Shown here: positions 33,564-59,543 of the stretch, in pieces | Layout of the letters: every line of letters starts with the position of its first letter | How positions within the stretch are numbered: position 1 is the first letter of the stretch | Program-made: the position numbers and the translations under genes | From: Candidatus Altiarchaeales archaeon | GTDB lineage: Archaea > Altiarchaeota > Altiarchaeia > IMC4 > QMZM01 | DNA: 64,000 nucleotides | Direction of reading: 5' to 3' | Assembly (NCBI GenBank): GCA_023252215.1 | Contig: JAHEXG010000002.1 | Location: 16,315 to 80,314, forward strand | The notes under the pieces: generated by a model | What the model was told of the DNA's origin: nothing | Databases searched by the model: none | Seen by the model: the letters and a program-made list of their open reading frames with translations, nothing else

Positions 33564-36500
33564 TTAGACATTCATGGTCACAGTTCTGGTCTCCGTTGTT
33601 CCAGATCCTCCCGCAGTCTTGTTCGCTGAGAAATAATAGCTGGATTTGCCGTTCTCAAGCCCTGTCAGATTCCCGTAGAACCGCCATTCTGTGGAACTGT
33701 ATTTCTGCAGCTCCGACTGGTAGAACATGGATATTTCCTTCTGGGAGAGAGCCCTGTTGTATATCCTCACCTCATCTATCAAGCCTTTAAAGTTCCTTCC
33801 TGATATGCCTGAGCCTATTTTAACAGTGCTGCAGGGAGTAATGCTTGAGAACGCGGTTGTTGCATAGCCCGCTACGGATCCGTCCTGATAGAGCGTGAGG
33901 TTCCCGGACTTCGCAGTTATAGCTATGTGCCTCCATACTCCTGTCGGCGTCTGCGCGATTATAGGCAGGTTTATCCCTCCGCTGCTTGTGAATACTGCCA
34001 TGTTACCAATCGCATTAAGCTGCATGTGGACCATACAGCTGTCAGGGGTTCCGACTATAGACTGGAATGTTCCGGTGGTCGCATTCACGTTCACCCAGGC
34101 GATCACCGTGAGCTCGGCTGCGCCGCCCAGCGTACCGTTGACATCGACCTGATCATCCACACCATCGAAGAACATAGCTCCGTTATATTTACCGGATCTT
34201 GACCAGACGGCACCGGATATGTTGCCAACGTGTCCCTTCGAGGAGACGTCCCCAACCTTTGTCGCGCTGTCGCCTGCGGCCGATATGTTGTTGAAGTTAT
34301 AGGCCAATGCAAGAGAGCCATCAAGCACCCTATACGTAGTCCCGTTCCAGTACAGGGAGAGTCCGGATATTGCTGCAGTATTTGACACGTTTACTTGAGC
34401 AAAGCTGCGGTTTATCGTCGCACCATTAGTCTCAGTCGGTGTCTTGAAAGATAACAAGGCAAGAGTAGTTGTTGTCGTGGTCGTCGTGGTAACAAGTGTT
34501 CCGACGTTATTCTGTTCGGCGCCGAATACCGTCTGAGGTTCTGGGAAAACATATTCGGCTACGTAGAGGTCATCCCACCGATTATTGTCAACCGATGCCT
34601 CTGAGCCGCCGGTCTTACCGAGAGACACAAATCCGCTCTTGTAGGGCCATGCAAAGGTATTCCTCTTGGTTCCGTTGAAATACAGGCTCATGTTAGTCCC
34701 GTCGAAACGGAAGCCTTCCATGAACCAGCGGTCCTGCACCGGAACATACTGTCCAAAGCTTGCGGACCCATTGAATCCGGAATAATAACCAATATTGTTA
34801 TTCGGATCACCATGGTGGAAGAACGCAGCATCCAGCGGCCAGACCTGATTTGGAGCAACTCTCCAAAGACCAGTCTGCGCAGTCTCCCCGCCAGTATTAT
34901 CCTCCGCATTCCAGGACTTCACTCCCACAAGATAAGGCTTAGAAATGTTCAAGCCTATTGGAGCCTTTGAAAGATTCAGATAGACATAAGCGTAGCCGTT
35001 CATGCAAGTCTGATAGCCGCTCTCCCCACACTCAGGAGTCTCCAAATAGCCGTTGGCCTCATTGATAGACGCCTCGCTCTGAAGCTTTGTCCAAGCGGAA
35101 TTGACTACACCATCATTAAAGTCATCGAAGAAAAGGAATGTCTTGCTGCCATTGCTCTGAGATACGGCAGAAGCATTGCCGTAGAACAACCAAAGCTGAG
35201 TCCCGTTTTTAGTATTCAAAGAGTCGGCTTTAATCCAAACCTCTGCCCACGAACCGTTATTTACATTCTCTACCCAGTAAGGCAGTGCAGTCGATCCGTT
35301 GCGATTCACGAACCTTAGATCAGAGAAGTCCGGCTTCATGTCACTGTCGTATGTGACTTTAAAGAAAAGACCGAGGTTGGTTGCGTTTTTTGCCACGCTG
35401 ATGTTCACAGGAACGCGCTTGGCAAAGCCGGGGAGGACGGAAGCTGACTGAGTCGTGGTGGTTGTTGTAGTTGTAGTGGTCGTGGTAGTTCTTGTAGTGG
35501 AAGTAGTTGTTGTGGTAGTAGTTGTAGTGGTTGTCATTGTAGTGGTCGTGGTAGTCATTGTAGTGGTCGTGGTAGTCATTGTAGTGGTCGTGGTAGTCAT
35601 TGTAGTGGTCGTGGTAGTCATTGTAGTGGTCGTGGTAGTCGTCGTAGTGGTCGTACCAACGCGAACCGTCCGTACTCCATTGTCTGTCTGCGCCTTGTTC
35701 CCGGCAGAATCATTCGCCCACGCGTAATAAGTATACGTCCCAACGCCCAGATTCGACAGGTTACAATAGAACCGATACTCAGTCGAATTATACTTCTGCA
35801 CCTCAGACTGATAATGAAACCACACCTCCTGCGCAGAAAGCTTGCGACGGTATATGCGCAGTTCGTCTATGCTGCCATTCATGGTCCCTCCGTCAACCCG
35901 CGAACCGACTGTAAGAGCTGCGGCGCTCTTTATGCCGTTACTCCCCAGGTTGTCCGCGTCCACTTCGGTCGCGACGCTCACGCCATTGAAATACATCTGC
36001 GGGCTGCCATCCCCACCGTAGGCAATCGCTACATGATACCAAGTATTCAGCGGAATCGTGCTAACAGACCTCTTAGACATCCTCGAGGTGAACCAGTTAT
36101 TGATCAGCTCCAGATAAATCTTGCCGTCGGCGAAGATCTCCACGCCGTAACCCATATATGGATCGGAATTCATCTTTGCCACTATCGGAGAATGCGCCGT
36201 CGTCCTCCTGTAGACCCAGGCCTCGAAAGAGAACGAATCAGTCCGGTCAAAACTCGTGCTATCCGACGTAGGAACAGTCACAACGTCATTGTATCCGTCA
36301 AAGGATACTGCTTTGCCGTACTTTCCTCCGACGAACGCAGGACACTTGCCGCCCGCCAGGTCGCACGATCCATTGTTCTTGTACTTTGAAGCGTCCACGA
36401 AACGAATCGAGGATTCGCCGAGGGCAGTGTTGTTGTTGAAGCCCTGCGCAAGCACCAGATCCTTGTCGTATACACTGTAATTGACACCATTCCAGTTGAA

Positions 36501-39500
36501 CCACATTGAGTCCAAAACATTGCCTGAACCAGGAGACACGCTCACGTTAAAGACGGCTCCGTTCGGACTGACCTGACTGTTATTGACAGGGGTCGGAGAG
36601 CGGAAAACGACACCGATCAATGTGGTCGCCAGAGTCGTCGAGGTAGTCGTCGTGGTAGACGTTGTAGTGGTCGTACCAACGCGAACCGTCCGTACTCCAT
36701 TGTCTGTCTGCGCCTTGTTCCCGGCAGAATCATTCGCCCACGCGTAATAAGTATACGTCCCAACGCCCAGATTCGACAGGTTACAATAGAACCGATACTC
36801 AGTCGAATTATACTTCTGCACCTCAGACTGATAATGAAACCACACCTCCTGCGCAGAAAGCTTGCGTCTATAGACCCGGACCTCGTCGATCGAACCGTTT
36901 ATAGTCCCCCCGTCGACCCTCGAACCTATGGTGAAAGGAGCGGAACTCTTGATGCTGCTAGACCCCAGCGTATCGAAAACTGTGTCCACACCCACGCTTA
37001 CGCCGTTGAAATACATCTGCGGGCTGCCATCGCCGCCATACGTAACAGCGACGTGATACCACGTATTCACCGGGATTATAGCAGCAGACCTCTTGATCAA
37101 GCGGGTTCTGAACCAATTATAGATCAGCTCAAAAGACAGCCGATCAGAATTGATCTCAAAACCGTAGCCCGTATAAGGATCAGAGGACATCTTTGCAAGG
37201 ATAGGAACAGACAAAGACGACCTGCGATAGACCCATGCCTCGAAAGAGAACGAATCGGTCCGCTCAAAATTCAGGCTCTCAGAATTCGGGACAGTCACAA
37301 CATCGTTTGAGCCGTCAAAAGACAGGGCGGAGCCGAACCTTCCGGAAACGTATGATGGGCATTTCCCCCCTGCAAGGTCGCATGAACCATTATTCCCCTG
37401 CCCGGAAACATCGACAAATAGAGTTGACGACTCGCCGATGCGAGTATTTCCATTAAAGGACTGACCAAGAACAAGATCCTTGTCATAAATGCTGTAGTTG
37501 ACCCCGTTCCAGTTGAACCTCAGGGAGTCAAGGGTCCTGCCCGAACCCGTGGACAGGCTCACATTAAGGACGGCTCCGTTCGGACCCACAAGGCTGTTGT
37601 TGGAAGGAGTGGGGGAACGAAAAGAGACACTGATCAAGGTGGCTGGCAGGGTCGTCGTGGTTGTAGTTGTTGTGCATGAAGTTCGACAAATACCATCACT
37701 GCACATAATCCCGTTTGTTCCACAGGCTTGCCAAGCACCCCATTTACCGATGTCGCAGGAGCAATAACGCACTTGCATCCCAGGACAACCATTAGCCGCG
37801 ATGCAGTTTTTTGTGTCCATTCCTCTCGCATCCGGCCAGCAGTAGGAACATTCTGCGCCGATCACCGTCACAATACCATCAGATTCTGTAATCGCCGCTT
37901 CATTTCCATATTCAAAATTTATTTCAGAATCCGTCAAGTCCAAAATAACGTTCCCTGGAGAAATCGCCATAAAAGTTACAACCGACAGAGCGGTTCCTGC
38001 ACTAGCCTTAGGCTCAAGGCATGCAAAATCGATCCCAACGACACCTGGCTTATTTGCAGAGACGTTGTAGCGCGAGCTGCAAGATGAGAGATAATCGCCT
38101 GACGAAACGCCAGTAACATTCAGTACTGATGAATTGTAATATAATCTGAAACTATATCCATAGATACCATCAAGAGGCGTCGATGCGATCTGCACCGTAA
38201 AGATATCATTTACTTTGACTTGACTAGCAGATGGAACTGCGCTTATAGTCGCTGAAGGGCCCTCAAAAGACTTGAGACCCAGTTTAGTGGTCTTAGCTTG
38301 ATTCGTGGCACTTGAAACGCTTTTCCCGGTTCCGTAGCTTGTAGAAAGAGTGAGCAGATCACCGTAATTCACGTATCCATTCTCATCAAAGTCGGAACGG
38401 ATATCATAGTTCTGCTGGCCTTTATTTGAACCGTATGCCGTAGCAAGAATCAATAGATCGGAGTAATCCACCTTATTATCTCGATTAGCATCTCCTGCGA
38501 GGCCGCCGATTGGATCGCAAACATCGCCTATGTAATTGTGATTATAGTCCATCTGGCCAGGATTACGGTCAAAGGGACAATTATCGTTTTTATCGAATAC
38601 GCCATCGTTGTCGTCGTCGCAGTCATAATAATCGGCATTTCCATCGCCATCGCTATCCCTTTTGGCTGAAAGGCGGAATTCTCCAGAACCAGAATCCATA
38701 TCAACTTCTATGTAATACGTCCCCGAATTGCTGATAACGCAACTCTCAGTTTCTGAACCAATAGTCCTACTTGTACAGAAAGGCTCGCTACCACAGGCAC
38801 TCGAAACATAGAGATCATAATCTGCACTAGAAGACATGCTCAGGTAAACAACGCCGGGAGAACTAAAACTCACCTTATAAAAACCACGCCATAGGTAATT
38901 TAAATCAGGGGTGTAAGTAGCTTTAACGACGCTATCCGGAGAAATCACTGGCGCGTTTGCGCAATAATAGTCGCCGGCATTTGAGACTGCAGCAGACTCG
39001 GGACAGCCGCTATTGCATTCTGGACCGTATGTTGAAAGGCAAGTATCTCTGCAATCTTTGACTCCATCTCCATCAGAGTCGTACAGACAACTGGGAGTAC
39101 TTAGTATATCCACGACGACGACTGAATATATTTTCGTCGGAATGTCTACGGAGATATAGTCGCCATCGGATTTTGGGATTCCTACAGAATCGCATCGCCG
39201 CCAGAGATTGGTTTTGGTTGTCAAATCAGTCTCTATGTTTTTGCCATCGTAAAGGTCTCCGCTAAGCAGTTTTATCTCTATGTGGTTCGTTTGTGTGTTT
39301 GCGGGGAGTTTGAGTAAAACAGGAGCATAATAAAAACGTGTCAGAGCTTTGCCGCCGTTTTTCTCCTGTACGGCATGAATGACATACCTCTTACCAGTAG
39401 GGCGTAATGGGCTGCTATAGGTTAACACGCCAGTTATGGCCAGATCATAATTAATCCCCGGGTCGGGTATGATTCCATCAGTAGAGGGATAAATCGTGGG

Positions 39501-41516
39501 ATAATTTTTGTATGTATCTGAATTCCGTTCTAAATCAGTTACGGCCATGTTGCTCCTGCCTACAGAATCCAAATTTAGATTTGGATCAGCGAACACATCC
39601 TTGTATCCATTATACATCGTCAGGTAATTTGAAAGATTCGAGACGATAAAATCGGGATTGTTATCTGACGATATTTTTGGATAATTGAATTCATTTATAC
39701 CCCGGTTACTCCAAGTCCATCCAACTATAACGCGAGGATCTCTTTGATCTCCGGTTAGAGGGGGATTATTAAACGGATCTTTGTAATGCCCTGGGCGCAT
39801 AGGTTTAAAGGAGGTATCATACGTTTGCTCGCTCCACAAGATATGACAGCCCTTTTCAGTTTCCCCTATGTCGGAGGTAAACTGGTCTGTGCTCGAACCA
39901 TCCTCAGAAGCAGCTAACGAAGGCCATGGAACAAAATAGTCGGAGGAGAAAAGAGCTTTATCAGCTCCTACACCTTCTTTTAACTGCCCTCTCATATGGC
40001 GTATCATGTTAGCATAGGCGTCTAGAGTAAAAGTGTCATTTACATTTAGTCCAAGATTCGAATTACCTTGACTGTTAAGTTTTATCTTTAAATCAGATGC
40101 ATAATCGCTGTTATACACGCCATAAGGAGTATCACTAGGGTATTCAAGGTGAGATATTCTAGTTGCACAGGTTTCCGCAGAACCAAATTTTATTGGGAGA
40201 TTATATGTTTCACCGCCGAGCGTATTGAGTAAATCGCCGCCCATAACAAGTCTCCCAGTATCGTCTACAAAAAATATGTCAAAATCGTAATTCTTCACAA
40301 GCCAACGAAACTGTTTCACCATATGATAATGATAACTGGGGTCATCAGCCCAATTCTCACCTTCAGACAGATCATCGTCAATTTGTTCCCGAGAAAATCC
40401 AGAACCGTCCTCAGCAGTAACGCCCGTCTTGGACACACCATAAGGAGACGCAGTAACGGCATAAGATATGGGGGTCCCCTCGAGTAAAGTCAATCTTTTA
40501 ACAACACCTGAACTATTTTTTTCAACCCAGCCATCAGCCATTAGGTCTGTTTTAGGATTGGGAGAAAGTTCGCATCCAGGAACATGAACAGGGTCATACA
40601 AACCGATAGGATCCATATAGACAGTTACTTTCATCCCATACCTATGAGCAATATCAGATATCTCTCGTATTTTTTTTCTTGCATCAGTAATCGAATAAAT
40701 GCCTAAAGAATTAAAGTTTCCTCGACGGACAGAAGCAGTCATAGGTGGCGTAGAATAATAGCTATTTCCATCCTCGCTTCCTGGAAACCAGCAGCTTGTT
40801 AATTTATTATTAAAAGGACATTCACAGCTACCTTTTTGGAGTGCGGGTTTAATTGTGCAAGCTTCATCCTCGCCGTAGGAATACCACAAATACGCCAAAT
40901 CTAATACGTTTAGCCCATAGCCGGATGCATACTTGATTACTCGTTCCCATTCGCTCGTCCACATTGAATCGATCTTTCCCTGATCTCCCGCGTAAGGTTT
41001 AAGCTTTTCGAAAATTGTTTCCCAGTCGCTTACGGCAACGTAATAGGTAAGCGTCCTGTAGTCCTTCGAAACCCCGAATTCGTCCACGTAGAACCTAAAT
41101 TCTGAGGAGGTACTATTGAATTTAGCGATAACCTTGAAATTTTGACCTACGAAACTGAACCCGCTGGGGGACTTCCAGGCAGCATAGTTACCGGAATTCC
41201 AAACCATGTTAAAATATTTTGTTTCGCCGGGAGCGACAGAAATGGATTTAGAAAGCTGGCCTACCTGGCTATTACTTCCATTATAAATTAAGAGCTGTAG
41301 AGTACCAGAAGCCGTACTTGAACCACCGTTCTGGATAACGGTTGTAAGGTTAACATCACCCCCAGATTTGAAAACCCGCTCAGGATTCCCTAAAGGGTCG
41401 GTCGTCTCCACCGAAACAACCAACGCAGCTAACGCATTATCAGCTAGAGCTAATATCATCAATCCAAGTATTAAAATTTTGCATAAAGATTTAGCATTGA
41501 CCTTTTTTGTTTTCAT
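33564..41516 (-). CDS. Giant secreted surface protein (2650 aa) with signal peptide, PPC-like domain, thrombospondin-type-3-like Ca-binding repeats, dockerin-like repeats, cohesin-like module, three LamG/concanavalin-like domains, DUF2341-like domain and poly-Thr linkers
   Basis: Signal peptide MKTKKVNAKSLCKILILGLMILALA. Ca-binding repeats DSDGDGNADYYDCDDDNDGVFDKNDNCPFD. Dockerin-like DANRDNKVDYSDLLILATAYG and DENGYVNYGDLLTLSTSYG. Cohesin-like VKVNDIFTVQIASTPLDGIYGYSFRLYYNSSVLNV...VVTFMA. LamG-type units duplicated. DUF2341-like LRFVNRNGSTALPYWVE. Confidence 0.85.
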   Translation of the reverse strand: MKTKKVNAKSLCKILILGLMILALADNALAALVVSVETTDPLGNPERVFKSGGDVNLTTVIQNGGSSTASGTLQLLIYNGSNSQVGQLSKSISVAPGETKYFNMVWNSGNYAAWKSPSGFSFVGQNFKVIAKFNSTSSEFRFYVDEFGVSKDYRTLTYYVAVSDWETIFEKLKPYAGDQGKIDSMWTSEWERVIKYASGYGLNVLDLAYLWYSYGEDEACTIKPALQKGSCECPFNNKLTSCWFPGSEDGNSYYSTPPMTASVRRGNFNSLGIYSITDARKKIREISDIAHRYGMKVTVYMDPIGLYDPVHVPGCELSPNPKTDLMADGWVEKNSSGVVKRLTLLEGTPISYAVTASPYGVSKTGVTAEDGSGFSREQIDDDLSEGENWADDPSYHYHMVKQFRWLVKNYDFDIFFVDDTGRLVMGGDLLNTLGGETYNLPIKFGSAETCATRISHLEYPSDTPYGVYNSDYASDLKIKLNSQGNSNLGLNVNDTFTLDAYANMIRHMRGQLKEGVGADKALFSSDYFVPWPSLAASEDGSSTDQFTSDIGETEKGCHILWSEQTYDTSFKPMRPGHYKDPFNNPPLTGDQRDPRVIVGWTWSNRGINEFNYPKISSDNNPDFIVSNLSNYLTMYNGYKDVFADPNLNLDSVGRSNMAVTDLERNSDTYKNYPTIYPSTDGIIPDPGINYDLAITGVLTYSSPLRPTGKRYVIHAVQEKNGGKALTRFYYAPVLLKLPANTQTNHIEIKLLSGDLYDGKNIETDLTTKTNLWRRCDSVGIPKSDGDYISVDIPTKIYSVVVVDILSTPSCLYDSDGDGVKDCRDTCLSTYGPECNSGCPESAAVSNAGDYYCANAPVISPDSVVKATYTPDLNYLWRGFYKVSFSSPGVVYLSMSSSADYDLYVSSACGSEPFCTSRTIGSETESCVISNSGTYYIEVDMDSGSGEFRLSAKRDSDGDGNADYYDCDDDNDGVFDKNDNCPFDRNPGQMDYNHNYIGDVCDPIGGLAGDANRDNKVDYSDLLILATAYGSNKGQQNYDIRSDFDENGYVNYGDLLTLSTSYGTGKSVSSATNQAKTTKLGLKSFEGPSATISAVPSASQVKVNDIFTVQIASTPLDGIYGYSFRLYYNSSVLNVTGVSSGDYLSSCSSRYNVSANKPGVVGIDFACLEPKASAGTALSVVTFMAISPGNVILDLTDSEINFEYGNEAAITESDGIVTVIGAECSYCWPDARGMDTKNCIAANGCPGMQVRYCSCDIGKWGAWQACGTNGIMCSDGICRTSCTTTTTTTTLPATLISVSFRSPTPSNNSLVGPNGAVLNVSLSTGSGRTLDSLRFNWNGVNYSIYDKDLVLGQSFNGNTRIGESSTLFVDVSGQGNNGSCDLAGGKCPSYVSGRFGSALSFDGSNDVVTVPNSESLNFERTDSFSFEAWVYRRSSLSVPILAKMSSDPYTGYGFEINSDRLSFELIYNWFRTRLIKRSAAIIPVNTWYHVAVTYGGDGSPQMYFNGVSVGVDTVFDTLGSSSIKSSAPFTIGSRVDGGTINGSIDEVRVYRRKLSAQEVWFHYQSEVQKYNSTEYRFYCNLSNLGVGTYTYYAWANDSAGNKAQTDNGVRTVRVGTTTTTSTTTTTSTTLATTLIGVVFRSPTPVNNSQVSPNGAVFNVSVSPGSGNVLDSMWFNWNGVNYSVYDKDLVLAQGFNNNTALGESSIRFVDASKYKNNGSCDLAGGKCPAFVGGKYGKAVSFDGYNDVVTVPTSDSTSFDRTDSFSFEAWVYRRTTAHSPIVAKMNSDPYMGYGVEIFADGKIYLELINNWFTSRMSKRSVSTIPLNTWYHVAIAYGGDGSPQMYFNGVSVATEVDADNLGSNGIKSAAALTVGSRVDGGTMNGSIDELRIYRRKLSAQEVWFHYQSEVQKYNSTEYRFYCNLSNLGVGTYTYYAWANDSAGNKAQTDNGVRTVRVGTTTTTTTTTTTMTTTTTTMTTTTTTMTTTTTTMTTTTTTMTTTTTTTTTTTSTTRTTTTTTTTTTTTTQSASVLPGFAKRVPVNISVAKNATNLGLFFKVTYDSDMKPDFSDLRFVNRNGSTALPYWVENVNNGSWAEVWIKADSLNTKNGTQLWLFYGNASAVSQSNGSKTFLFFDDFNDGVVNSAWTKLQSEASINEANGYLETPECGESGYQTCMNGYAYVYLNLSKAPIGLNISKPYLVGVKSWNAEDNTGGETAQTGLWRVAPNQVWPLDAAFFHHGDPNNNIGYYSGFNGSASFGQYVPVQDRWFMEGFRFDGTNMSLYFNGTKRNTFAWPYKSGFVSLGKTGGSEASVDNNRWDDLYVAEYVFPEPQTVFGAEQNNVGTLVTTTTTTTTTLALLSFKTPTETNGATINRSFAQVNVSNTAAISGLSLYWNGTTYRVLDGSLALAYNFNNISAAGDSATKVGDVSSKGHVGNISGAVWSRSGKYNGAMFFDGVDDQVDVNGTLGGAAELTVIAWVNVNATTGTFQSIVGTPDSCMVHMQLNAIGNMAVFTSSGGINLPIIAQTPTGVWRHIAITAKSGNLTLYQDGSVAGYATTAFSSITPCSTVKIGSGISGRNFKGLIDEVRIYNRALSQKEISMFYQSELQKYSSTEWRFYGNLTGLENGKSSYYFSANKTAGGSGTTETRTVTMNV
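35531..35640 (-). repeat. 21-bp tandem repeat, about 5 copies, inside the giant gene, encoding (TTTTTTM)n linker
   Basis: Unit cattgtagtggtcgtggtagt repeated head-to-tail. In-frame on the reverse strand. Confidence 0.85.
35645..36876 (-). repeat. 1020-bp tandem duplication inside the giant gene; 212-bp blocks (35645-35856 and 36665-36876) are 100% identical, the remainder about 75% identical
   Basis: Direct comparison of the two segments in the sequence. Encodes duplicated LamG-containing units ending ...SAQEVWFHYQSEVQKYNSTEYRFYCNLSNLGVGTYTYYAWANDSAGNKAQTDNGVRTVRVGTTTT. Confidence 0.9.
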
Positions 41517-41916: not shown

Positions 41917-43312
41917 GGTTGTCCCATAATTCTTTGTTTGAATTTGTGTTTGTGTATTTATACTTTCTTTCGTAAATCATTATGCAGAGGCGCATTTGTT
42001 ATGGCTTATATTGATTCTTTTAAGGGTCAGAATTGGCTTCTTCCGCCTAGTATTCGTGATATGATTCCGGGGGCCATGTCTGTTTTTTTGTTGAGGATTT
42101 TGTTGATTCTTTGGATTATTCAGGATTTGATTCTGTTTATGAGGACGCAGAGCATCCTGCTTATCATCCTCGTGTTTTGTTGAAGGTTTTGGTTTAGGGT
42201 ATGATGTGCGGTACTCGTTCTTCCCGGAAGATTGCGCGTGCTGCGCGTGAGAATTTTGTTTTCATGTATTTGGCTGAGCGATTATGTCCTGATATAAGAT
42301 GATTGAGGAGGACAATACCTTGGATGATTTGAAAGATGAATTGTTTGACGGCAGGGAAGAAGGCTTAACCGGCGTTGATAGGCGTGATTTAAAGCGTATT
42401 GTGCGGGAGTACAATGAGAGTGAAAACAAGAAGCGGATTAAGAAAAAAATAGGTAAGGCCAAGACGGAGCTTGAAGAGCATGGTTTGAAGAAGGTTTCTC
42501 TTTCGGATCCTGAGCGTCGCATGATGCAGAATAAGCATGGAGTGAGTGAGTTGTGCTATAATATTCAATTGGGTGTTTCCAGTAATCAGATTGTTTTGTC
42601 TTCTGATGTCTGCCAGGATAAACATGATGCGCATCAGTTTATTCCTCAGATGAACAAGCTGCGGGAAAACGTTGAGCTGCAAAAGAACACAAAAATCGGC
42701 GTGGAATGCGCTTACAGCGACAGGGAAAACATCCATTTTGCGGAGGATAAGGGCTTGGATTTGTATGATCCTTCGAGGGCGCAGACTCAGGAATTAGATT
42801 GCAAGGAACAGAATCTCAATCACGACCATTACGAATATGATGAAAAGCACAATGAGATCATTGTAGATGGAACAAGGTATCGATATCGTGGTCCTTATAC
42901 GAGAAATAAGAGCGGGAGGACGCTTGTCACCTTCTACAATCCGCAGATAAAGAAGAAAAAAGACCGTCCGTCCTATTTTAGGGAGCGTCTTAGAATGAGG
43001 AATAAAATGTCCACACCTGAAGATAGACGGATTTATAATCAGCGTAAGACAAGCGTGGAGCCAGTGTAAGGAAACCTGAAAACCAATCGGGGTTAGGGAA
43101 TTTTTACTGAGAAGAAGGGAAAAAGCAAAGATCGAACTAAATTTAGCGTGTATCGCGCACAATTTGCAGAAAATACATCGAATGATGGGCGAAAAAAGCG
43201 GGGTATTGACCCGAAAAGAGGGACGTTTTTTAATTCAACCCCCCAAAAAAAAAGCTTCAGTACCTCAAAAACCAAAAACGAATTATGGGACAGCCTCAGA
43301 CATTTAAACGCC
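41917..43312 (+). mobile_element. IS1182-family insertion sequence remnant with 16-bp imperfect terminal inverted repeats
   Basis: Left IR GGTTGTCCCATAATTC (41917-41932) and right IR (reverse complement) GGCTGTCCCATAATTC (43280-43295). Internal transposase fragments. Lower GC than flanks. Confidence 0.6.
42001..43312 (+). pseudogene. IS1182-family DDE transposase, inactivated by at least 5 frameshifts
   Basis: N-terminus MAYIDSFKGQNWLLPPSIRDMIP then a frame change. ...VCFFVEDFVDSLDYSGFDSVYEDAEHPAYHPRVLLKVLV and ...RSSRKIARAARENFVFMYLAERLCPDIR lie in other frames. Middle ORF 42299..43069 holds SDPERRMMQNKHG...YNIQLGV...SSDVCQDKHDAHQ. C-terminal FGNLKTNRG / REFLLRRREKAKIELNLACIAHNL is again shifted. 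Confidence 0.65.
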
Positions 43313-43380
43313 CTTTTTATGCATTGAAGCAAATATAATAGTAGTATTACGAAATTGTAAATAGTATTACTGGTGAAAAT

Positions 43381-43674
43381 ATGTGGTTGATAACATCTTT
43401 TGTCGCGGCAATACTCGTGACTGCGTTATGGGCGTATGCTCCGAAGAAATACAAGCTGAGTTTTTTGGCTTTGATGCTCTGGGGGCTTGCAGTGATGATA
43501 CTGGTGGACCATGTGATGGGATACGAAGGCTCGGGCTCGTTCCTTGAAATGGAAACGGAAGGACTTATCGAGAACGGGACGGTTCTCGGTATAGCGATGC
43601 TGATACCCGTATTTATTATATGGGAGATCGCACTAGTAATATCGAAAACAAAGGGGGAGATAACGACGAGGTAA
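43381..43674 (+). CDS. Small membrane protein (paralog A)
   Basis: 97 aa, 3 TM segments. Shares LMLWGLAVMILVDHVMGYEG / LNAMLWGGTAGLALEHVAHGE with the next gene. Confidence 0.5.
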   Translation: MWLITSFVAAILVTALWAYAPKKYKLSFLALMLWGLAVMILVDHVMGYEGSGSFLEMETEGLIENGTVLGIAMLIPVFIIWEIALVISKTKGEITTR

Positions 43675-43680
43675 AAAAAA

Positions 43681-44016
43681 ATGGCATGTTTTAGCGCACC
43701 AACGGCCGTTGCTATTGTTACAACGGCCTGCAGGAAAAAGATACCGGAAAAGTACCACATAAACTGGCTTAACGCGATGCTCTGGGGAGGAACCGCAGGG
43801 CTGGCATTGGAACACGTCGCCCACGGGGAGATAGTGCCCTATTTCCCCTTTCTGACGGCCATGAAGAGCGCACAGGATACCGCAGTCATGTTCCAGGAGA
43901 TATTGACCGTAGGAGTCGGTATGCTTGTCGTCTGTTTGATCGTCTGGGCATTAATGGTGTTCGTTGCCTGGAAATTAGAGGCAAAGGCCAAAAACGTAGT
44001 TACGCAGGCGGTATAA
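43681..44016 (+). CDS. Small membrane protein (paralog B)
   Basis: 111 aa. Paralogous to the preceding gene, 7-nt spacer. Confidence 0.5.
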   Translation: MACFSAPTAVAIVTTACRKKIPEKYHINWLNAMLWGGTAGLALEHVAHGEIVPYFPFLTAMKSAQDTAVMFQEILTVGVGMLVVCLIVWALMVFVAWKLEAKAKNVVTQAV

Positions 44017-44099
44017 GTAAAAAAGTCCGGACGCCGGAGAATCTGTGCGTCAAGCTTCTTCTTTTAACTTTTTATTCGGAAAACGCCTAAGATAAATCC

Positions 44100-45347
44100 A
44101 TGGCTTATCCAAGAGCAAGAACACCGATAGCTTTATCGCTTATACTGTGCGTTCTGCTATTTTTCTGCGGATGCGCAGGCAACAAAGGGACTGCCGTCAC
44201 AACCACCACCCAGTTCATTACCGCGACAACGCTGCCGGTTCAGAATACCCCCGCAGCCTCGTTCGGAGAATACGCCACATTCTACACCCGCATGGTTTAC
44301 GCAGGGAACCTGGGAGGAAAGCCCGCATATATCGTATCAAATGGCAATGTATCGAATGGCAATAAAAAACTCATATTATACGACGGAAAAGAGATAGGAG
44401 CGTCCTATGATCAGGCTCTTATGCCCGCGCTCATCGCCGGAAAATTGTTCTATGCGGGCGTCAAGAATAATAAATACAGCGCAGTATATGACGGACAGGA
44501 AATTGGAAAAGATTTCTTCTCCATCTGGTCTCCCGGCGAATACCTGGGAAAGCCCATCTACGTCGCCGAGAAGATAGGAAAAAGCGTCCTTATTTTTGAC
44601 GGGAACGAAATAAGCAACGCAAGCTACGACTACGTCTGGTCCTATGCAATAATAAACGGCAAGATCGCTTATCTTGCATCAAAGGCAGGGGAGACGTATA
44701 TCGCCAAAAAAATCAACCCCCAGACTTCGGAGTCCAGGAGAGACATCCCGCCAGAGGGGGTGAAATCGGTCATAGTCTATGACGGAAAGGAGTATGGCAG
44801 GGAATATGACACCGTAGGCTTCCCGATGGGTATCAAAGGATCGCTTGCCTTTATCGCTCTCAAAGGCGCTAAAAAATTCACGGTTCTGGGCGGCATGGAG
44901 GGCACGAAATACGACGACATACACGAACCCCTATTATACGATGGGAAGACCGCGTACATAGCCGAGAAAGACGGGAAAAGCTTCCTTGTATACGACGGCG
45001 CGGAGTATAAAGCATACGACCGCATTGACCCAACCTCGTTGAAGAACATCGATGGAAAAATGTCTTACCGGGCCGCTGATCCAACCACCAAAAAAGGAAA
45101 ATACTTCATAGTATATGACGGCGCAGAGATTGGGAAAGACTACGACAACGTCCTCTCATTTGCCGCGTTGTCAGGAAAGCAGGCTTATGTTGCGGATAAT
45201 AAGACAACACGCTCAGTTGTCTACGCCGGCGGGAGCAGCGGGAAAGCATACAGCGCGATTGACCCGGACTCGCTTGCATTCTACGACGGGAAGCTCATGT
45301 TCACGGCCCAGAAAAACGGCGTATGGTACGTCGTATCGGAGGAATAA
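44100..45347 (+). CDS. Lipoprotein with about 9 tandem 36-40-aa repeats (YDGxEIGxxYD periodicity)
   Basis: Signal/lipobox LLFFCGCAG. Repeated K..Y[IV]AEK.GKS.L[IV]YDG.E.G..YD units. Confidence 0.7.
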   Translation: MAYPRARTPIALSLILCVLLFFCGCAGNKGTAVTTTTQFITATTLPVQNTPAASFGEYATFYTRMVYAGNLGGKPAYIVSNGNVSNGNKKLILYDGKEIGASYDQALMPALIAGKLFYAGVKNNKYSAVYDGQEIGKDFFSIWSPGEYLGKPIYVAEKIGKSVLIFDGNEISNASYDYVWSYAIINGKIAYLASKAGETYIAKKINPQTSESRRDIPPEGVKSVIVYDGKEYGREYDTVGFPMGIKGSLAFIALKGAKKFTVLGGMEGTKYDDIHEPLLYDGKTAYIAEKDGKSFLVYDGAEYKAYDRIDPTSLKNIDGKMSYRAADPTTKKGKYFIVYDGAEIGKDYDNVLSFAALSGKQAYVADNKTTRSVVYAGGSSGKAYSAIDPDSLAFYDGKLMFTAQKNGVWYVVSEE

Positions 45348-45348
45348 T

Positions 45349-45783
45349 TTGAAAGAGGAACCGGTTGCAAGGATAGCGATATCGCTCCCGCCAAAGCTCC
45401 TGGAAAAATTCGACGAGATGAGCGAAAGGATGGGCTACGCGAACCGCTCGGAAGCGATAAGGGACGCTGCGAGAAACTATATACTCAAAAACGAGCTACG
45501 AAGCGTAAAAGGAAAGCGAGTAGGAGTTATCTCCATAGTCTACGACCACGACGTGCGCGGAGTAAACGACGTATTGATCGACCTGCAGCACAGGTACCAT
45601 GACGTAATACAGTCAAGCACGCACCTGCACCTGGACGAACACAACTGCATGGAACTTATCATGGTCAGGGGCGAAGCAAAGAGGATAAACGAAATAAAGG
45701 ATCGGCTGACGACCGTTTCAGGCGTGACCCACAGCGACCTGTTGATAACTGGGATCGCTGCAAGCCACGAGCACGCGCACTAA
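45349..45783 (+). CDS. nikR: Nickel-responsive regulator NikR (ribbon-helix-helix plus C-terminal metal-binding domain)
   Basis: RHH ARIAISLPPKLLEKFDEM...RSEAIRDA. C-terminal H/C ligands HLHLDEHNCMEL...HEHAH. TTG start 6 nt after GGAGG, 1 nt after the lipoprotein stop. Confidence 0.7.
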   Translation: MKEEPVARIAISLPPKLLEKFDEMSERMGYANRSEAIRDAARNYILKNELRSVKGKRVGVISIVYDHDVRGVNDVLIDLQHRYHDVIQSSTHLHLDEHNCMELIMVRGEAKRINEIKDRLTTVSGVTHSDLLITGIAASHEHAH

Positions 45784-45834: not shown

Positions 45835-46665
45835 CTATGCGCCGGGCATGCCTGCTGTGAGGTCTATGGGTTCTGCAGGGGGTACAAAGTCTGAGTCAGA
45901 TACGCTGGTTTTGTAGTTTGTCGCTTCCTGCACTACGTGCATGCCTCCGCTGTTGCTTTCCGAGTACAGCAGTACTCCGTCGGGGGAAATGCAGTAGGTG
46001 TAGTCCCCTGAAGGCATGCCGCCCGGTACCCCATTTGCAGTTGCACTTATTGTTACCTTGTAGCATTTGGCTGTTACTCCCACAATGACCCGGTCAGTTA
46101 GCTGCGAAACAACGCTTGTGTCTATGCTCTTTTGTATTACATCTGCCTGCTTCTTTGGGTCCTGGGACGTATCCTGCTGGGGCATCTTTATGCAGCTCCA
46201 TGCTGCGCCCTGCTTGTTGCACACTATGTAAACATTGGATGACAGGTAGACTCTGGATTCCCCGAGGCCCTGCGTTTGGGCTAAAGTGTCCATACGCAAC
46301 TTATCCGCCTTTACGTAGTAAGCCATCTGCCCGTTATAGCTGTTCTGGGCACCTCCGGTCATAGTGGTATCATATGCCACCATATACTCCTTTGCGCCGT
46401 TCTGGAACAGGCTCTTAACCTGCGCGTTAAGGTCCGTACCGGTGCCAGAATTTCCGGTAGCCTGCGTATTAGCAACAGTAGTCACTGTCTTTGCTCCAGC
46501 AACAGTAGTCACCGTTTGACCTGCATTCTCCTGGCCGGCCGCCTGCGTGGTTGACGTCTGCAAAGCAGCCTGTTGAGGCGGACTATTGCATCCGGCGTTA
46601 ATCAGCAGCGTAACCAGAAAGACCGCAAATAAAACATTTTTCACCATCGACAAGGTTGTTTTCAT
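45835..46665 (-). CDS. Lipoprotein, hypothetical
   Basis: Start set at MKTTLSMVKNVLFAVFLVTLLINAGC (lipobox), because the longer track ORF overlaps the SDR gene. Thr/Gln-rich linker. Confidence 0.55.
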   Translation of the reverse strand: MKTTLSMVKNVLFAVFLVTLLINAGCNSPPQQAALQTSTTQAAGQENAGQTVTTVAGAKTVTTVANTQATGNSGTGTDLNAQVKSLFQNGAKEYMVAYDTTMTGGAQNSYNGQMAYYVKADKLRMDTLAQTQGLGESRVYLSSNVYIVCNKQGAAWSCIKMPQQDTSQDPKKQADVIQKSIDTSVVSQLTDRVIVGVTAKCYKVTISATANGVPGGMPSGDYTYCISPDGVLLYSESNSGGMHVVQEATNYKTSVSDSDFVPPAEPIDLTAGMPGA

Positions 46666-54065: not shown

Positions 54066-56204
54066 TTGAAAGTATTCCTTTACGACTTCGGCGGAGAGAT
54101 AAAGTACCCGGAGAACCTAGACTTCGGGAAGGACGTAGAGATCATCCGCCTGAAAGACATATCCACCGAAGAGACGCGCCGCACAGTTGAAAAGGCGCTC
54201 AAAACAGACAAGGTCGTATTCGTAGGGCCAAGCCACCGCATATCCGAAAGATTTTTTTCCGATCCGAACATAAAGTTCGTGAACGCGCGGGAACATGTGG
54301 CATGGGTGGGCCATAACCCGGAAAAGATAAGGGACCTCGTACAGGGTTCCATAGACAAATTACGTAACTCAAATAAAATAGAGAATAAGCGTTTTCTCAT
54401 AAAGCACAAAAGCGCGCTGGTCATAGGGGCCGGGATAGCCGGCCTGGAAACCGCGCGACAGATAGCTAATTCCGGATACAAGGTATACTTGATAGAGAAG
54501 AAACCATTCGTCGGGGGGCTTGTGGCCCGCCTGGACAGGCTGTATCCTGCGGGGACGCCCAACTCCCATATTCTTTACCCGCTCATAAACGAAGTAGTCA
54601 GCAACCCGAATGTAGAGGTCCTCGTGAACACGGAAATGGAAAAAGCCGAGGGCACCGTGGGGGACTACGCGGTAAAGCTGAAGATCAAAGGAAACGTCGT
54701 CGAAGGAAAATTGCCTAAAAAATGCGAGGAAGTCTGCCCTGTAGAAGTCGTGGATAAGATACCGCGCAAGGCGATATACTATCAGCCCACTTATCCTGAA
54801 TCGTACGGCATAGACTTCGATGCCTGCACCAAATGCGGTAACTGCGTGAAAGTAATGCCGGAACTATCCCTTGGAGAGACTGAGAGAACCATACACGTAG
54901 GCGCGATAGTCGTCGCAACCGGGCTCAAGGGGTATGACGCAAAAAGGATAGTCGAATACGGCTACGGCAGGTACCCCAACGTATACACGAAGCTGGAATT
55001 CGAAAGAAGATTCGCAAACGGCCTCATAAAGCCCAAGAGCGTAGTCATCGTGAACTGCGCAGGATCGCGCGACAAGAATCACCTGCCTTACTGCTCCAGA
55101 GTCTGCTGCATGCTCGGCCTTAAGGCAGCAAAACTCATAAAGGACACAGCCCCCGAAACCGAGGTCTACGTAAATTACATAGACATGCGAAGCTACGGCA
55201 TATTCGAGGAATTCTATAACATCGTACGCGAAACATACGGCGTAAAATTCGTGCAGGGACGCCCCTCGGAGATACTCCAGGACGCGGACGGAAAACTCGT
55301 TGTAAGATGCGAAGACATCCTCCTGGACAAGAACATCGAGATGAAAGTAGATTGCGTAGTCCTCATGACAGGCTTCGTCCCGGACAAGGAATCATTCGAC
55401 AAACTCGGGATATACACCGCAGGAGCATACCCGGTAGAATACGTAAACTCCACATACTCAATAGACTCGAATCCCAGGGGAATATTCATCGCAGGCTCCG
55501 CAGGCTACCCCAAAGACGTAGCCGAGATACTGATAAACGCGGCAAACGCCCCCGGCGGAGTCATCGAAATACTGAGCAAAGACTACGTAGAAAACAAGAC
55601 ACCAACCGCGAAGATCGACTCCAGGATATGCAGCGAGAACAACTGCAGGATATGCATCACGGCCTGCCCATACGGCGCAGTGCACATGAAAGGAGAGGAG
55701 GTAGTAGTCAATGAGGAAGTATGCATGGGCTGCGGCATATGCACTGCCACCTGCGCCGCAGGAGCAAACCAGCTCCAGGGATTCGAAGAAAAGGGAATGC
55801 TCGCACAGATAGGAGGCATGACCAAAAAAGGGGACGTGATCGCTTTTATGTGCAAGTGGAGTTCCTACAACGCCGCGGACAAGGCGGGACAGGAGCGCCT
55901 GACCTACCCCGAGAACGTAAAGATAATACGCGTGCCATGCACGGGCCGTGTCTCCGCGCAGATGATACTCAAATCCTACGAATCCGGCGCGAAGGCGGTC
56001 CTGGTCGCAGGCTGCCCGCCGGACGCATGCCACTACTTCACTGGCAACTTCAAGGCAAGAAAAAGGATAACCGCATTAAAGGCCATGCTTTCCCAGTTCG
56101 GCATAGATCCCGAAACGCTAGCGATCGAATGGATAGGAAAAGACGAGTCAAAGAAATTCGCGGAGACGGTAACGAGACTGAACGGATTAAAACAGCAAAA
56201 ATGA
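54066..56204 (+). CDS. hdrA: Heterodisulfide reductase subunit A-like flavoprotein with C-terminal MvhD domain fusion
   Basis: FAD motif VIGAGIAGLETA. Multiple 4Fe-4S Cys clusters (CTKCGNC, CSENNCRIC, CMGCGIC). C-terminal MvhD-like domain (CKWSSYNAADKAG...VPCTGRVS...CPPDACHY). TTG start. Confidence 0.8.
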   Translation: MKVFLYDFGGEIKYPENLDFGKDVEIIRLKDISTEETRRTVEKALKTDKVVFVGPSHRISERFFSDPNIKFVNAREHVAWVGHNPEKIRDLVQGSIDKLRNSNKIENKRFLIKHKSALVIGAGIAGLETARQIANSGYKVYLIEKKPFVGGLVARLDRLYPAGTPNSHILYPLINEVVSNPNVEVLVNTEMEKAEGTVGDYAVKLKIKGNVVEGKLPKKCEEVCPVEVVDKIPRKAIYYQPTYPESYGIDFDACTKCGNCVKVMPELSLGETERTIHVGAIVVATGLKGYDAKRIVEYGYGRYPNVYTKLEFERRFANGLIKPKSVVIVNCAGSRDKNHLPYCSRVCCMLGLKAAKLIKDTAPETEVYVNYIDMRSYGIFEEFYNIVRETYGVKFVQGRPSEILQDADGKLVVRCEDILLDKNIEMKVDCVVLMTGFVPDKESFDKLGIYTAGAYPVEYVNSTYSIDSNPRGIFIAGSAGYPKDVAEILINAANAPGGVIEILSKDYVENKTPTAKIDSRICSENNCRICITACPYGAVHMKGEEVVVNEEVCMGCGICTATCAAGANQLQGFEEKGMLAQIGGMTKKGDVIAFMCKWSSYNAADKAGQERLTYPENVKIIRVPCTGRVSAQMILKSYESGAKAVLVAGCPPDACHYFTGNFKARKRITALKAMLSQFGIDPETLAIEWIGKDESKKFAETVTRLNGLKQQK

Positions 56205-57190
56205 CAGGAAAAGAAAAGCTAAAGATCGCCATATGCCGGGGATGCACATGCTCAGGCTGCGACATAGCGATACTCGACATACACGAGCGCCTGCTTAAAG
56301 TGATCGAGAAGGCGGACATAGTATACGCTCCGACCATCATGGATGCGAAGAATGCGGACGTTGAGAAAATGAAAGACCGGGAAATAGACGTCTGCTTCTA
56401 TCACGGCGCGGTCCGCGATTCCGACAACGAGGAGCTTGCACGTTTGCTGCGCAAAAAGTCCAAGATAATGATAGCCTTCGGCGCATGCGCCTGCTTCGGC
56501 GGAATATTCGGCCTTGCGAACACCACCAACAGAAAGGAGATATTCGAAGAAGTCTATAAGAACACAGCCTCCACCGACAATCCTGAGGGCATAATGCCCC
56601 AAACGGAATACGCGGACAAGAAAGGACACACAATGACCCTGCCGGAGATCTACGACAGCGTCTATCCACTGAATGAAAAAGTAGCCGTCGACTACTACAT
56701 CCCGCTGTGCCCGCCGATACCGGACCAGATAATGACGGGACTTGCCGCCATCACCTCAGGGAACCTCCCCCCAAAAGGAACGATACTCGCATCAGAAAAA
56801 ACGCTATGCAGCGAATGCGAAAGAACAAGGTCCCAGGTCAGGAAGATAGGCAAGATACACCGCCCCCACGAAATAGAAATCGACCAAGAGAAGTGCATGC
56901 TGGACCAGGGACTATTATGCATGGGCCCCGCGACGAGAGCCGGCTGCGGGACTATCTGCGTGAAGGCGAACGTGCCATGCCGCGGCTGCAACGGCCCCAC
57001 GAGCCAGGAATACGACCAGGGAGCAAACATGCTCAGCCTCGTTGCCACGATATACGGAATACCCGAAGAATCGCTCACAGAAGAAGACGTAAAAAAGGCG
57101 ATGAAAGAAATAAAAGACCCGCTGGGAACTTTTTACAGATACACGTTGCCTACGTCGATACTGAAAAGAAAAAGGATGGACGGAAAATGA
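56201..57190 (+). CDS. mvhG: [NiFe] hydrogenase small subunit (MvhG-like)
   Basis: N-terminal CRGCTCSGCD, further FeS Cys clusters. ATGA overlap with hdrA. Track ORF from 55721 is over-extended. Confidence 0.8.
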   Translation: MTGKEKLKIAICRGCTCSGCDIAILDIHERLLKVIEKADIVYAPTIMDAKNADVEKMKDREIDVCFYHGAVRDSDNEELARLLRKKSKIMIAFGACACFGGIFGLANTTNRKEIFEEVYKNTASTDNPEGIMPQTEYADKKGHTMTLPEIYDSVYPLNEKVAVDYYIPLCPPIPDQIMTGLAAITSGNLPPKGTILASEKTLCSECERTRSQVRKIGKIHRPHEIEIDQEKCMLDQGLLCMGPATRAGCGTICVKANVPCRGCNGPTSQEYDQGANMLSLVATIYGIPEESLTEEDVKKAMKEIKDPLGTFYRYTLPTSILKRKRMDGK

Positions 57191-58662: not shown

Positions 58663-59110
58663 CAAGACACTCGTGCTAGGCGTAGGAAATCCCATACTGG
58701 GAGACGACGGAGTAGGCATACATGCGGTAAGGGAGCTTAGAAAAGACGCAGGCTGCGCAGATTTTGAGGAGGCGCCCGTCTCAAGCCTGGAACTGGTGGA
58801 AATGTTCCTAGGATACGAGAAAGTCATAATCGTCGACGCAGTAAAAACAAGGGAAGGCGTCCCGGGAAAAATATACGAACTATGCGGGGAGGATATGCCT
58901 ACCCTGCACGGCCTGTCCCCGCACGACGTGGACTTTCATACCGCACTGGAATACGGGAAAAAATTCATGGGACAGATGCCGAAGATAACGATATACGGCA
59001 TCGAAGCCGCAAACGTAACGGACTTTGGCGAAACGCTCAGCCCAAAGGTCGAGGAATCTCTTCGTTTAGTCATAGAAAAAATCAAAAAAGAAATCAAAGA
59101 TGGATCTTAG
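58655..59110 (+). CDS. Hydrogenase maturation endopeptidase (HycI/FrhD-like)
   Basis: VLGVGNPILGDDGVGIHAV N-terminus typical of hydrogenase C-terminal proteases. Overlaps mvhA by 8 nt. Confidence 0.75.
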   Translation: MNNKTLVLGVGNPILGDDGVGIHAVRELRKDAGCADFEEAPVSSLELVEMFLGYEKVIIVDAVKTREGVPGKIYELCGEDMPTLHGLSPHDVDFHTALEYGKKFMGQMPKITIYGIEAANVTDFGETLSPKVEESLRLVIEKIKKEIKDGS

Positions 59111-59543
59111 GGAAGAACTCAAAAGCGAAATAGACGGCAAGACCATAAGCTATTGCTTCAGCTGCGGCATGTGTACCGGAGGCTGTCCCTCGGCCCGCCT
59201 GAACGAAAAATACAATCCCAGAAGGATACTCCACCGCGCAGTCATAGAAGGAAAAATCGAGAACGACATCTGGCTCTGCACCAACTGCTACACATGCCAG
59301 GAACGCTGCCCCACAAAGACCAAAGTCGCGGACATTATCAGCTTCATGCGCAGGATATACGTCAAAGAAAAAGGCATACCCGAATTCATAAAACCCCTGG
59401 TTACGAATTTGCAGAACTGCGGATTCACTGCCCCCATAGGGGAACTGGAAAACAAGAGACGCGAGCGGATGGGACTTCCCCCGATGAAGACAAACGACGA
59501 AATAAGAAAGATAATAGAGAAGACGGGAGGCGGCGTAAAATGA
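59100..59543 (+). CDS. hdrC: Heterodisulfide reductase subunit C-like (two 4Fe-4S motifs)
   Basis: CFSCGMCTGGCP and CTNCYTCQERCP. Confidence 0.75.
   Translation: MDLREELKSEIDGKTISYCFSCGMCTGGCPSARLNEKYNPRRILHRAVIEGKIENDIWLCTNCYTCQERCPTKTKVADIISFMRRIYVKEKGIPEFIKPLVTNLQNCGFTAPIGELENKRRERMGLPPMKTNDEIRKIIEKTGGGVK

Follow-up and report, generated by a model that had tools for sequence, protein, structure and literature searches.

A NikR-associated pair of small paralogous membrane proteins as a candidate nickel importer in archaea and some bacteria

Organization of the locus

The subject of this analysis is a pair of adjacent genes, here called m1 and m2, that encode small paralogous membrane proteins in a 64 kb stretch of DNA from a Candidatus Altiarchaeales archaeon (contig JAHEXG010000002.1), and that represent a candidate nickel importer, probably under the control of the regulator NikR. 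This whole stretch is referred to as the window, and all coordinates are positions within it; relatives' loci carry handles of the form L### and individual homologous proteins handles of the form P####. According to the listing of open reading frames (ORFs) and to reading of the sequence, m1 and m2 belong to a run of four co-directional genes at 43381-45783, all of them as described in an earlier interpretation made from the letters alone (the sequence-only reading):

43381-43674, plus strand: m1, 97 amino acids (aa), three transmembrane (TM) helices, with the conserved motif LWG...(V)DH..GYE
43681-44016, plus strand: m2, a 111-aa paralog of m1 with the N-terminus M-A-C-F and conserved WLN, LWGG, E44-H45, H48, E50, PFLTAM and E73
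44100-45347, plus strand: lipobox protein of 415 aa, predicted to form a roughly nine-bladed beta-propeller, with its TAA stop codon at 45345-45347
45349-45783, plus strand: nikR, 144 aa, with a TTG start, recognized by Pfam and NCBIfam NikR models

The spacer between the m1 stop and the m2 start, previously given as 7 nucleotides (nt), measures 6 nt. The likeliest start codon of nikR is the TTG at 45349, from which orthologs align starting at residue 1; it lies 1 nt past the TAA of the lipoprotein gene, which fits the gap reported before.

From the perspective of domain content and motifs, the product of nikR is unambiguously NikR. Both an N-terminal ribbon-helix-helix (RHH) DNA-binding domain and a C-terminal NikR_C (ACT-like) domain were found (Pfam RHH_1, 2.9e-11; NikR_C, 6e-29), and the NCBIfam models NF002169 and NF003381 score above their cutoffs. 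The pattern of the high-affinity nickel site, H-x-H-x5-C, is present as HLHLDEHNC together with an upstream histidine (LQHRYH), and these residues presumably correspond to H87, H89, C95 and H76 of the E. coli protein. The identification of this gene in the sequence-only reading, by its RHH domain and C-terminal His/Cys metal site, is borne out. Orthologs in L002, L005 and L026 are 68-88% identical.

Downstream of the module lie hypE, hypB, hypA, hypD and hypF, an Hdr/Mvh-type [NiFe] hydrogenase cluster, hycI and the gene for LarA, so that the proximity of hyp, hydrogenase and LarA genes noted earlier is confirmed. No known nickel or cobalt transporter was found among the 26 window ORFs scanned with Pfam, a scan outside which larger ORFs, including 28662-30176 and 30361-32373, fell; for those 26 ORFs, the absence of such a transporter holds as it had been stated.

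A conserved NikR operator in the m1-m2 promoter

The region upstream of m1 contains the following elements:

43314-43321, plus strand: TATA-like box TTTTTATG of the putative m1-m2 promoter, about 23 nt upstream of the NikR box
43344-43370, no strand assigned: 27-base-pair (bp) NikR operator GTATTAC-N13-GTATTAC (GTATTACGAAATTGTAAATAGTATTAC), ending 10 nt before the m1 ATG
43372-43376, plus strand: Shine-Dalgarno-like GGTGA preceding the m1 ATG

The box at 43344-43370 is the sole zero-mismatch match to GTRNYAC-N13-GTRNYAC in the window. Judged by its half-sites and spacing, it belongs to a published class of NikR signals, described as GTGTTAC-N13/14-GTAACAC together with a reversed form (Rodionov et al. 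2004; PMC545781). A NikR palindrome had been expected upstream of 43381, and a box is indeed there, although of the GTRNYAC-N13 class and not of the GTATGA type that had been suggested. Sites of the E. coli type (GTATGAT half-sites with spacers of 11-16 and up to 2 mismatches) do not occur in the window, and neither N13 nor N14 boxes were found there upstream of the hyp or mvh operons, where the sequence-only reading had also proposed to look for them. One-mismatch N12 sites at 11871, 40110 and 45585, the last of them within the nikR coding sequence, are regarded as chance occurrences.

The box is not a peculiarity of the window. Within 120 nt upstream of the pair, a NikR box is present in 31 of 69 distinct loci, compared with 2.5% of random control windows taken from the same loci, and it is conserved across archaeal phyla and in bacteria. 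The 26 distinct box sequences share the consensus GTATTAC-GAAATTAAAAAAA-GTGTTAC, and in 12 of them the distance from the end of the box to the start codon is 9-13 nt. In bacteria, boxes lie ahead of nikR as well as ahead of the operon of porin, m1 and m2, and in some archaea (L012, L098 from Methanomassiliicoccus, L100 from Thermoplasmata) the box is present without a nearby nikR. The surrounding elements are also retained: a block (C)TTTTTAT(A/G)...GAAG lies about 23 nt 5' of the NikR box in L002, L005, L019 and L026, and GGTGA or GGTGG stands between box and ATG in most archaeal loci. The assignment of 43314-43321 as a promoter element is inferred from archaeal promoter geometry; with a TATA box about 23 nt to its 5' side, the NikR box would lie over the expected transcription start, which is the geometry of a repressor site. 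The conservation of the operator in orthologous promoter regions points to m1-m2 as a member of the NikR regulon.

Association of the pair with nikR across genomes

Context look-ups, a metagenome scan, tblastn and blastp searches and clustering of neighbours show that nikR adjoins the pair in at least four gene orders. These orders, together with the loci in which the pair and the lipoprotein gene diverge, are distributed as follows:

nikR divergent from m1-m2: L016-18, L020-25, L031, L039, L079-80, L088, L094-97
m2-m1-nikR-hypA-hypD: L032-36, L040
(feoB-)nikR-(53 aa)-OprB porin-m1-m2, the bacterial form, with OprB confirmed by Pfam: L045-59, L063, L064
m1-m2-lipoprotein-nikR: the window, L002, L003, L006, L005, L026
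pair divergent from the lipoprotein gene: L007, L004, L061

Among 20 distinct complete loci, defined by at least 1.5 kb of sequence on both sides, nikR lies within 3 kb in 13, nikR or a box is found in 16, and both paralogs are kept in 19. Nothing besides nikR and the pair is conserved in L016-L018, an arrangement that would suit a regulator and the transporter it controls. Further genes that recur nearby are related to nickel or cobalt, among them hypA (11 loci), hypB, hypD, hypE, cbiMNQO, cobalamin cbi genes and feoB. The chief reason to see a functional link is that the association with nikR has survived repeated rearrangement and extends across domains.

Two of these settings present distinctive features. 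In the bacterial form (for example L054, 2269-6594), the 53-aa ORF contains the pattern KYGE..I.IH.SKIVQIE, the OprB-family porin has an N-terminal coiled coil, and several tandem NikR boxes precede the porin gene. In Methanomassiliicoccus-like loci (L098, 7001-7646; L012, 5694-6339), the pair is flanked on one side by the trp operon (or cbiMNQO) and on the other by the cobalamin cbi operon, and it keeps a NikR-type box; this may point to cobalt use or to a dual cobalt and nickel importer controlled by NikR.

The m1/m2 protein family

BLASTP aligns m1 and m2 with E=1e-7 and 26% identity over 86 residues, which confirms the paralogy proposed earlier. Of the three TM helices that had been attributed to each protein, those of m1 stand, its hydropathy profile showing three hydrophobic segments, whereas m2 has a weakly hydrophobic N-terminal segment followed by two clearer ones. 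Since this segment is also a helix of just 12 residues when a fused homolog is modelled, a short N-terminal helix and two TM helices describe m2 better. The structure modelled was that of P0169, a natural m2-m1 fusion, with alignment A6; P0107, in which the order is m1-m2, was set aside because MAFFT had misaligned m1 sequences onto its m2 half. The P0169 model is confident (predicted local distance difference test score, pLDDT, 87.2; predicted template modelling score, pTM, 0.80) and consists of the short N-terminal helix of 12 residues and four long helices.

Natural single-chain fusions of this kind occur in both orders, in archaea and in metagenome-assembled genomes (MAGs) of Eubacterium (P0357, P0488 and P0489 from the Eubacterium MAGs; P0169, P0131, P0337 and P0107). 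They lose one helix at the junction, being composed either of m2 and m1 minus TM1 or of m1 minus TM3 and m2, and their m1-derived half often lacks the DH motif, with DC, DR or DQ in its place. The distribution of charges suggests, by the positive-inside rule, that the first loop and the C-terminus are cytoplasmic in both m1 and m2, which would make the two proteins parallel. An antiparallel pair of dual topology, similar to SMR or Fluc proteins, was considered and rejected, since the positive-inside charges are the same for both proteins and the fusions are consistent only with a parallel topology.

The family is broad. A word-indexed search retrieved 3,530 proteins at E up to 0.01, and an exhaustive profile search delimited 469 clusters at 50% identity, all of 75-253 aa. 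Among the matches listed, m1 is 68-89% identical to 119 other homologues, which include members of Altiarchaeota, Diapherotrites, Thermoplasmatota and Methanomassiliicoccales. The family has no Pfam domain, precomputed or computed, no NCBIfam match and no relative in the PDB, and the source names of the members seen or sampled are all generic, nearly all of them "hypothetical protein". No prior description of the pair was found in the searchable literature, although Rodionov et al. (2006) may mention it. Taken together, m1 and m2 constitute an undescribed protein family that most likely does a known job, that of the membrane part in a module of NikR and an importer.

Conservation profiles single out polar residues within these otherwise hydrophobic proteins of about 100 aa, where Cys, His, Asp and Glu are conserved. 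In m1 the conserved positions are LWG, D43-H44 and GYE; in m2 they are WLN, LWGG, the EH..H.E motif (E44-H45, H48 and E50), PFLTAM and E73. In addition, the N-terminus of m2 reads M-[A/G/S]-C-[F/L] in about 190 of 269 family members sampled, and the small residue that follows Met1 leads to the prediction that the methionine is removed, leaving a free Ala-Cys N-terminus.

The propeller lipoprotein and its own probable promoter

The 415-aa protein between m2 and nikR had been described as about nine repeats likely to form a beta-propeller, and its predicted model is in keeping with this, consisting of a closed ring of roughly nine four-stranded blades. A lipobox-like sequence (LLFFCGC or LLFSGC), the mark of a putative lipoprotein, is conserved in its orthologs. 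These number about 20, with 43-79% identity, and m1 and m2 are adjacent in every ortholog locus examined; the lipoprotein occurs in Altiarchaeia-like relatives alone, and most pair loci lack it. Among known systems it comes closest to envelope lipoproteins with a beta-propeller fold, for instance BamB and the TolB-like proteins, and distant propeller homologs were found in Patescibacteria, Woesearchaeota and other Altiarchaeota, some of them with a peptidoglycan-binding domain (PG_binding_1).

Two further elements lie between m2 and the lipoprotein gene:

44026-44038, plus strand: hairpin TCCGGACGCCGGA, directly 3' of the m2 stop
44068-44076, plus strand: TATA-like element CTTTTTATT, 24-32 nt 5' of the lipoprotein ATG; candidate internal promoter of the lipoprotein gene and nikR

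The hairpin may be an attenuator, a terminator or an RNA end. The TATA-like element is part of a block, TTTTATKCGGAAAA.GCCTAAG.TAAATCC-ATG, that is conserved in L005, L002 and L026 and, on the other strand, in L061. In the window the element has no associated NikR box; in L061 it abuts a NikR box in a shared divergent intergenic region. This arrangement suggests that the lipoprotein gene and nikR have a second promoter, free of a NikR box and possibly leaderless; if so, the repressor would still be expressed when m1-m2 are off. The four genes had been assigned to one transcription unit, of which the head-to-tail order holds, but a single transcript is doubtful in view of the conserved element before the lipoprotein ATG.

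Neighbouring genes

Outside the four genes, one conserved neighbour may or may not belong to the module:

45835-46665, minus strand: lipobox protein (LLINAGC) of 276 aa; conserved neighbour, module membership uncertain

The start of this protein was re-assigned to M47 of the listed ORF, and it has no Pfam match. One or two paralogs of it stand between nikR or the lipoprotein gene and hypE in the Altiarchaeia loci L002, L005 and L007, and the L005 paralog (9627-10769) has a thioredoxin-like C-terminus.

Immediately 5' of the m1 promoter, a partial IS1182-family transposase gene occupies 42299-43069 on the plus strand (NCBIfam NF033551, profile positions 219-448 of 488). Relatives have a nifU-like gene and metRS at this place, which indicates an insertion or rearrangement that halted just short of the TATA box and the NikR box. 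Further upstream, 33564-41516 on the minus strand encodes a secreted protein of 2650 aa that combines long poly-Thr linkers with a module of about 330 aa present three times; it is probably a surface protein or one resembling S-layer proteins. Within the hydrogenase region, 54066-60415 on the plus strand encodes an HdrA-like protein that includes an MvhD (FlpD) domain and, after it, both Mvh subunits of the [NiFe] hydrogenase (small, then large), the protease HycI and a protein with a CCG domain; overlaps among the listed ORFs suggest that start codons there need curation.

Comparison with known nickel systems

By domain membership, the pair is none of NikABCDE, Nik/CbiMNQO, NiCoT or HupE/UreJ. 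The E. coli NikR-nikABCDE system shares with the locus the adjacency of nikR to a membrane system with a two-half-site operator of 27-28 bp near the start site, and the logic that import is repressed when nickel is plentiful. The pair is, however, not an ABC system, since an Opp/Dpp-class solute-binding protein, permease domains and an ATPase are all lacking. Neither m1 and m2 nor the lipoprotein nor any scanned neighbour has the Pfam or NCBIfam domains of such a system, which comprises two permeases, two ATPases and a solute-binding protein of family 5. The operators also differ, that of the window being of the GTRNYAC-N13 class and not GTATGA-N16-TCATAC.

The energy-coupling factor (ECF) transporters NikMNQO and CbiMNQO, with their NikK, NikL or CbiN components, are likewise NikR-regulated in many prokaryotes and include membrane components of about 100 aa. 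In NikM and CbiM the metal is bound by the extreme N-terminus, and the same kind of role is proposed here for the Ala-Cys N-terminus of m2. The pair is nevertheless not a member of this group, as it has none of the CbiM/NikM, CbiN/PDGLE, CbiQ and CbiO domains, CbiN and NikL-type components included.

The HupE/UreJ and NiCoT families (HoxN, NixA) resemble the proposal made here in that they are stand-alone membrane nickel importers encoded beside hydrogenase or urease genes. In both, a transmembrane helix bears a signature that includes His, and the mature N-terminus of HupE binds metal. They are single chains of 6 and 8 TM helices, respectively, in contrast to the two paralogous chains of about 100 aa described here, and no HupE_UreJ or NicO Pfam match at E up to 0.1 was obtained for m1, m2 or the natural fusions. 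Whereas the NiCoT/NicO proteins HoxN, NixA and RcnA have the signature HX4DH, the pair has (D/E)H at the end of one helix in a 100-aa protein.

As regards envelope components, FrpB4 and FecA3 of H. pylori provide outer-membrane nickel uptake co-regulated by NikR with an inner-membrane importer (references in PMC11247825). The likeness consists in a NikR-co-regulated component of the outer envelope; the difference is that this component is here an OprB-family porin in bacteria, or the propeller lipoprotein in Altiarchaeia, and not a TonB-dependent receptor.

Proposed function

With moderate confidence, m1 and m2 are interpreted as a putative NikR-repressed importer of Ni(II), possibly also of Co(II). 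What the analysis shows is the anatomy of the genes, their paralogy, the breadth of the family, the synteny with nikR, the conservation of the operator and the propeller fold; repression, transport, its substrate, the metal ligands and the part played by the lipoprotein are inferred. The two proteins would assemble into a small hetero-oligomer in the cytoplasmic membrane and take up Ni(II), in some lineages perhaps Co(II) as well. While nickel is plentiful, nickel-loaded NikR would occupy the 27-bp box at 43344-43370 and block transcription of m1-m2; under nickel limitation, the pair would be made. The loop KKYK/RKKIPEKYH and the C-termini would be cytoplasmic by the positive-inside rule. At the outer face, Ala2-Cys3 of m2 (after removal of Met) and its residues E44, H45, H48, E50 and E73, together with D43, H44 and E49 of m1, are predicted to make up a nickel-capture site, in which the free Ala-Cys N-terminus of m2 would come close to the His and Glu residues clustered at the outward end of helix 2. 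This site is proposed by analogy with the N-terminal metal sites of NikM/CbiM and of nickel superoxide dismutase (Ni-SOD), proteins that bind their metal through such sites. The gene for NikR would be translationally coupled to that of the lipoprotein and probably also be expressed from the internal promoter, so that the repressor would be made while the pair is off.

Hosts with an outer envelope layer would add a further partner to this regulon, either an OprB-type porin (bacteria) or the nine-bladed propeller lipoprotein (Altiarchaeia). For the lipoprotein, a function as envelope accessory, scaffold or receptor of a nickel complex is the most economical reading, although its role is uncertain. 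This reading draws on the double membrane of Ca. Altiarchaeum and on the OprB porin at the equivalent operon position in diderm bacteria. A periplasmic scaffold or ligand receptor appears more likely than a direct binder of Ni(II).

The reading that joins all these parts is more tentative than that of the importer, and we place it slightly on the doubtful side of even: m1 and m2 as an undescribed and widespread family of nickel (perhaps cobalt) importers, with 469 clusters in archaea and some bacteria, made of two paralogs of about 100 aa, with capture by the Ala-Cys N-terminus of m2, EH..H.E and DH, and with OprB or the propeller as outer partner.

Evidence against and alternative explanations

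Several observations weigh against the importer and its extended form. The complex would be very small, with 4-6 helices per heterodimer, and few polar residues are conserved in the inner half of the membrane, where a translocation path is not evident. In Methanomassiliicoccales the position of the pair beside cobalamin synthesis speaks for cobalt no less than for nickel. Neither nikR nor a box accompanies the pair in L041, L042, L066, L070, L077, L084, L090 and L102, and in L007 pair and lipoprotein are kept with no nikR within 9 kb and no box. For the outer partner, the absence of any conserved His, Cys or Met among lipoprotein orthologs is unfavourable, as is the likelihood that the lipoprotein gene may be transcribed independently of the NikR box. 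The inner and outer membranes with a 32-nm periplasm are those of Ca. Altiarchaeum hamiconexum (PMC4460559) and are not documented for the lineage of the window.

The occurrence of pair and lipoprotein without nikR in a relative had been named beforehand in the sequence-only reading as a refuting case, and it does occur, both in L007, where the divergent intergenic region between pair and lipoprotein (122-231) lacks a NikR box and the lipoprotein is 43% identical, and on the contigs carrying P0018, where nikR is likewise missing from the surrounding 9 kb. The L007 lineage seems to have lost or relocated its NikR control. Adjacency to nikR is therefore dispensable, and the association of the pair with NikR across phyla stands.

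The same context bears on what the pair transports and in which direction. A cobalt transporter, or a dual one whose preference depends on lineage, is an unlikely reading of the pair. Nickel and cobalt specificity is known to vary between lineages in Cbi/NikMNQO and NiCoT, and in Methanomassiliicoccus sp. L098 and in L012-15 the cobalamin cbi operon follows directly on the pair, which in L012-15 also lies about 1.4 kb downstream of cbiMNQO; in these very loci, however, a NikR-type box stands 11 nt ahead of the start codon, the neighbours elsewhere are nikR and hyp, and the context in the window is NikR, Hyp, [NiFe] hydrogenase and LarA. A comparably low probability is given to the pair being a NikR-regulated accessory that does not itself translocate, such as an extracytoplasmic subunit for nickel capture or relay, or an anchor that feeds another permease. 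The very small size of the complex, the concentration of conserved ligands at the outer face and the few deeper polar residues would suit such a role, and orphan small NikK/NikL components without a core transporter have been reported (PMC2667541). Yet many loci have no other conserved membrane protein beside nikR and the pair, and the retention of both paralogs in 19 of 20 complete loci, along with the existence of natural fusions, suggests a self-contained unit. Least probable is a NikR-activated device for nickel efflux or resistance. NikR does activate some Helicobacter promoters, and small paired membrane proteins are often exporters, but the position of 12 of the 26 distinct boxes, ending 9-13 nt before the start codon and downstream of a TATA element, is that of a repressor, and a co-regulated porin and hyp and hydrogenase neighbours fit acquisition.

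A larger share of doubt attaches to the lipoprotein, for which it is a real if minority possibility that the protein is an envelope component unrelated to nickel, placed between the pair and nikR by lineage-specific synteny. It is found only in Altiarchaeia-like relatives, its distant homologs (in Patescibacteria and Woesearchaeota, and a paralog in the same MAG, L008) lack nickel context and in some cases carry PG_binding_1, and it has its own conserved TATA-like element without a NikR box. Moreover, its mature part contains one His and no Cys, and none of His, Cys or Met is conserved, which makes a high-affinity Ni(II) site of the classical kind unlikely. Against its being a bystander, all ortholog loci examined, down to 43% identity, keep m1 and m2 adjacent despite flips in orientation, the NikR box of L061 lies in a shared divergent promoter region, nikR begins 1 nt after the lipoprotein stop, and diderm bacteria insert a porin at the equivalent place. 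The earlier proposal of membrane pair and lipoprotein as one nickel apparatus under NikR control is therefore upheld, and indeed strengthened, in its nickel link for the pair, but not for the lipoprotein, which is lineage-specific and has its own probable promoter.

Implications

Nickel is needed by [NiFe] hydrogenases, methyl-CoM reductase (through F430), carbon monoxide dehydrogenase/acetyl-CoA synthase (CODH/ACS), urease and LarA. Censuses have recorded nickel-using organisms without any known nickel transporter, and no more than three transporter families in archaea (PMC2667541). If m1 and m2 are indeed an importer, they would fill part of this gap. They would represent a new and unusually minimal transporter family, allow better annotation of several thousand functionally unnamed proteins and offer a compact system in which to study how a very small membrane complex selects and moves transition metals. 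The archaeal NikR operators gathered here are a ready comparative data set. Finally, the OprB porin and the propeller lipoprotein give a hint that organisms with two membranes, whether bacterial or archaeal, may attach different parts of the outer envelope to the same inner-membrane core.

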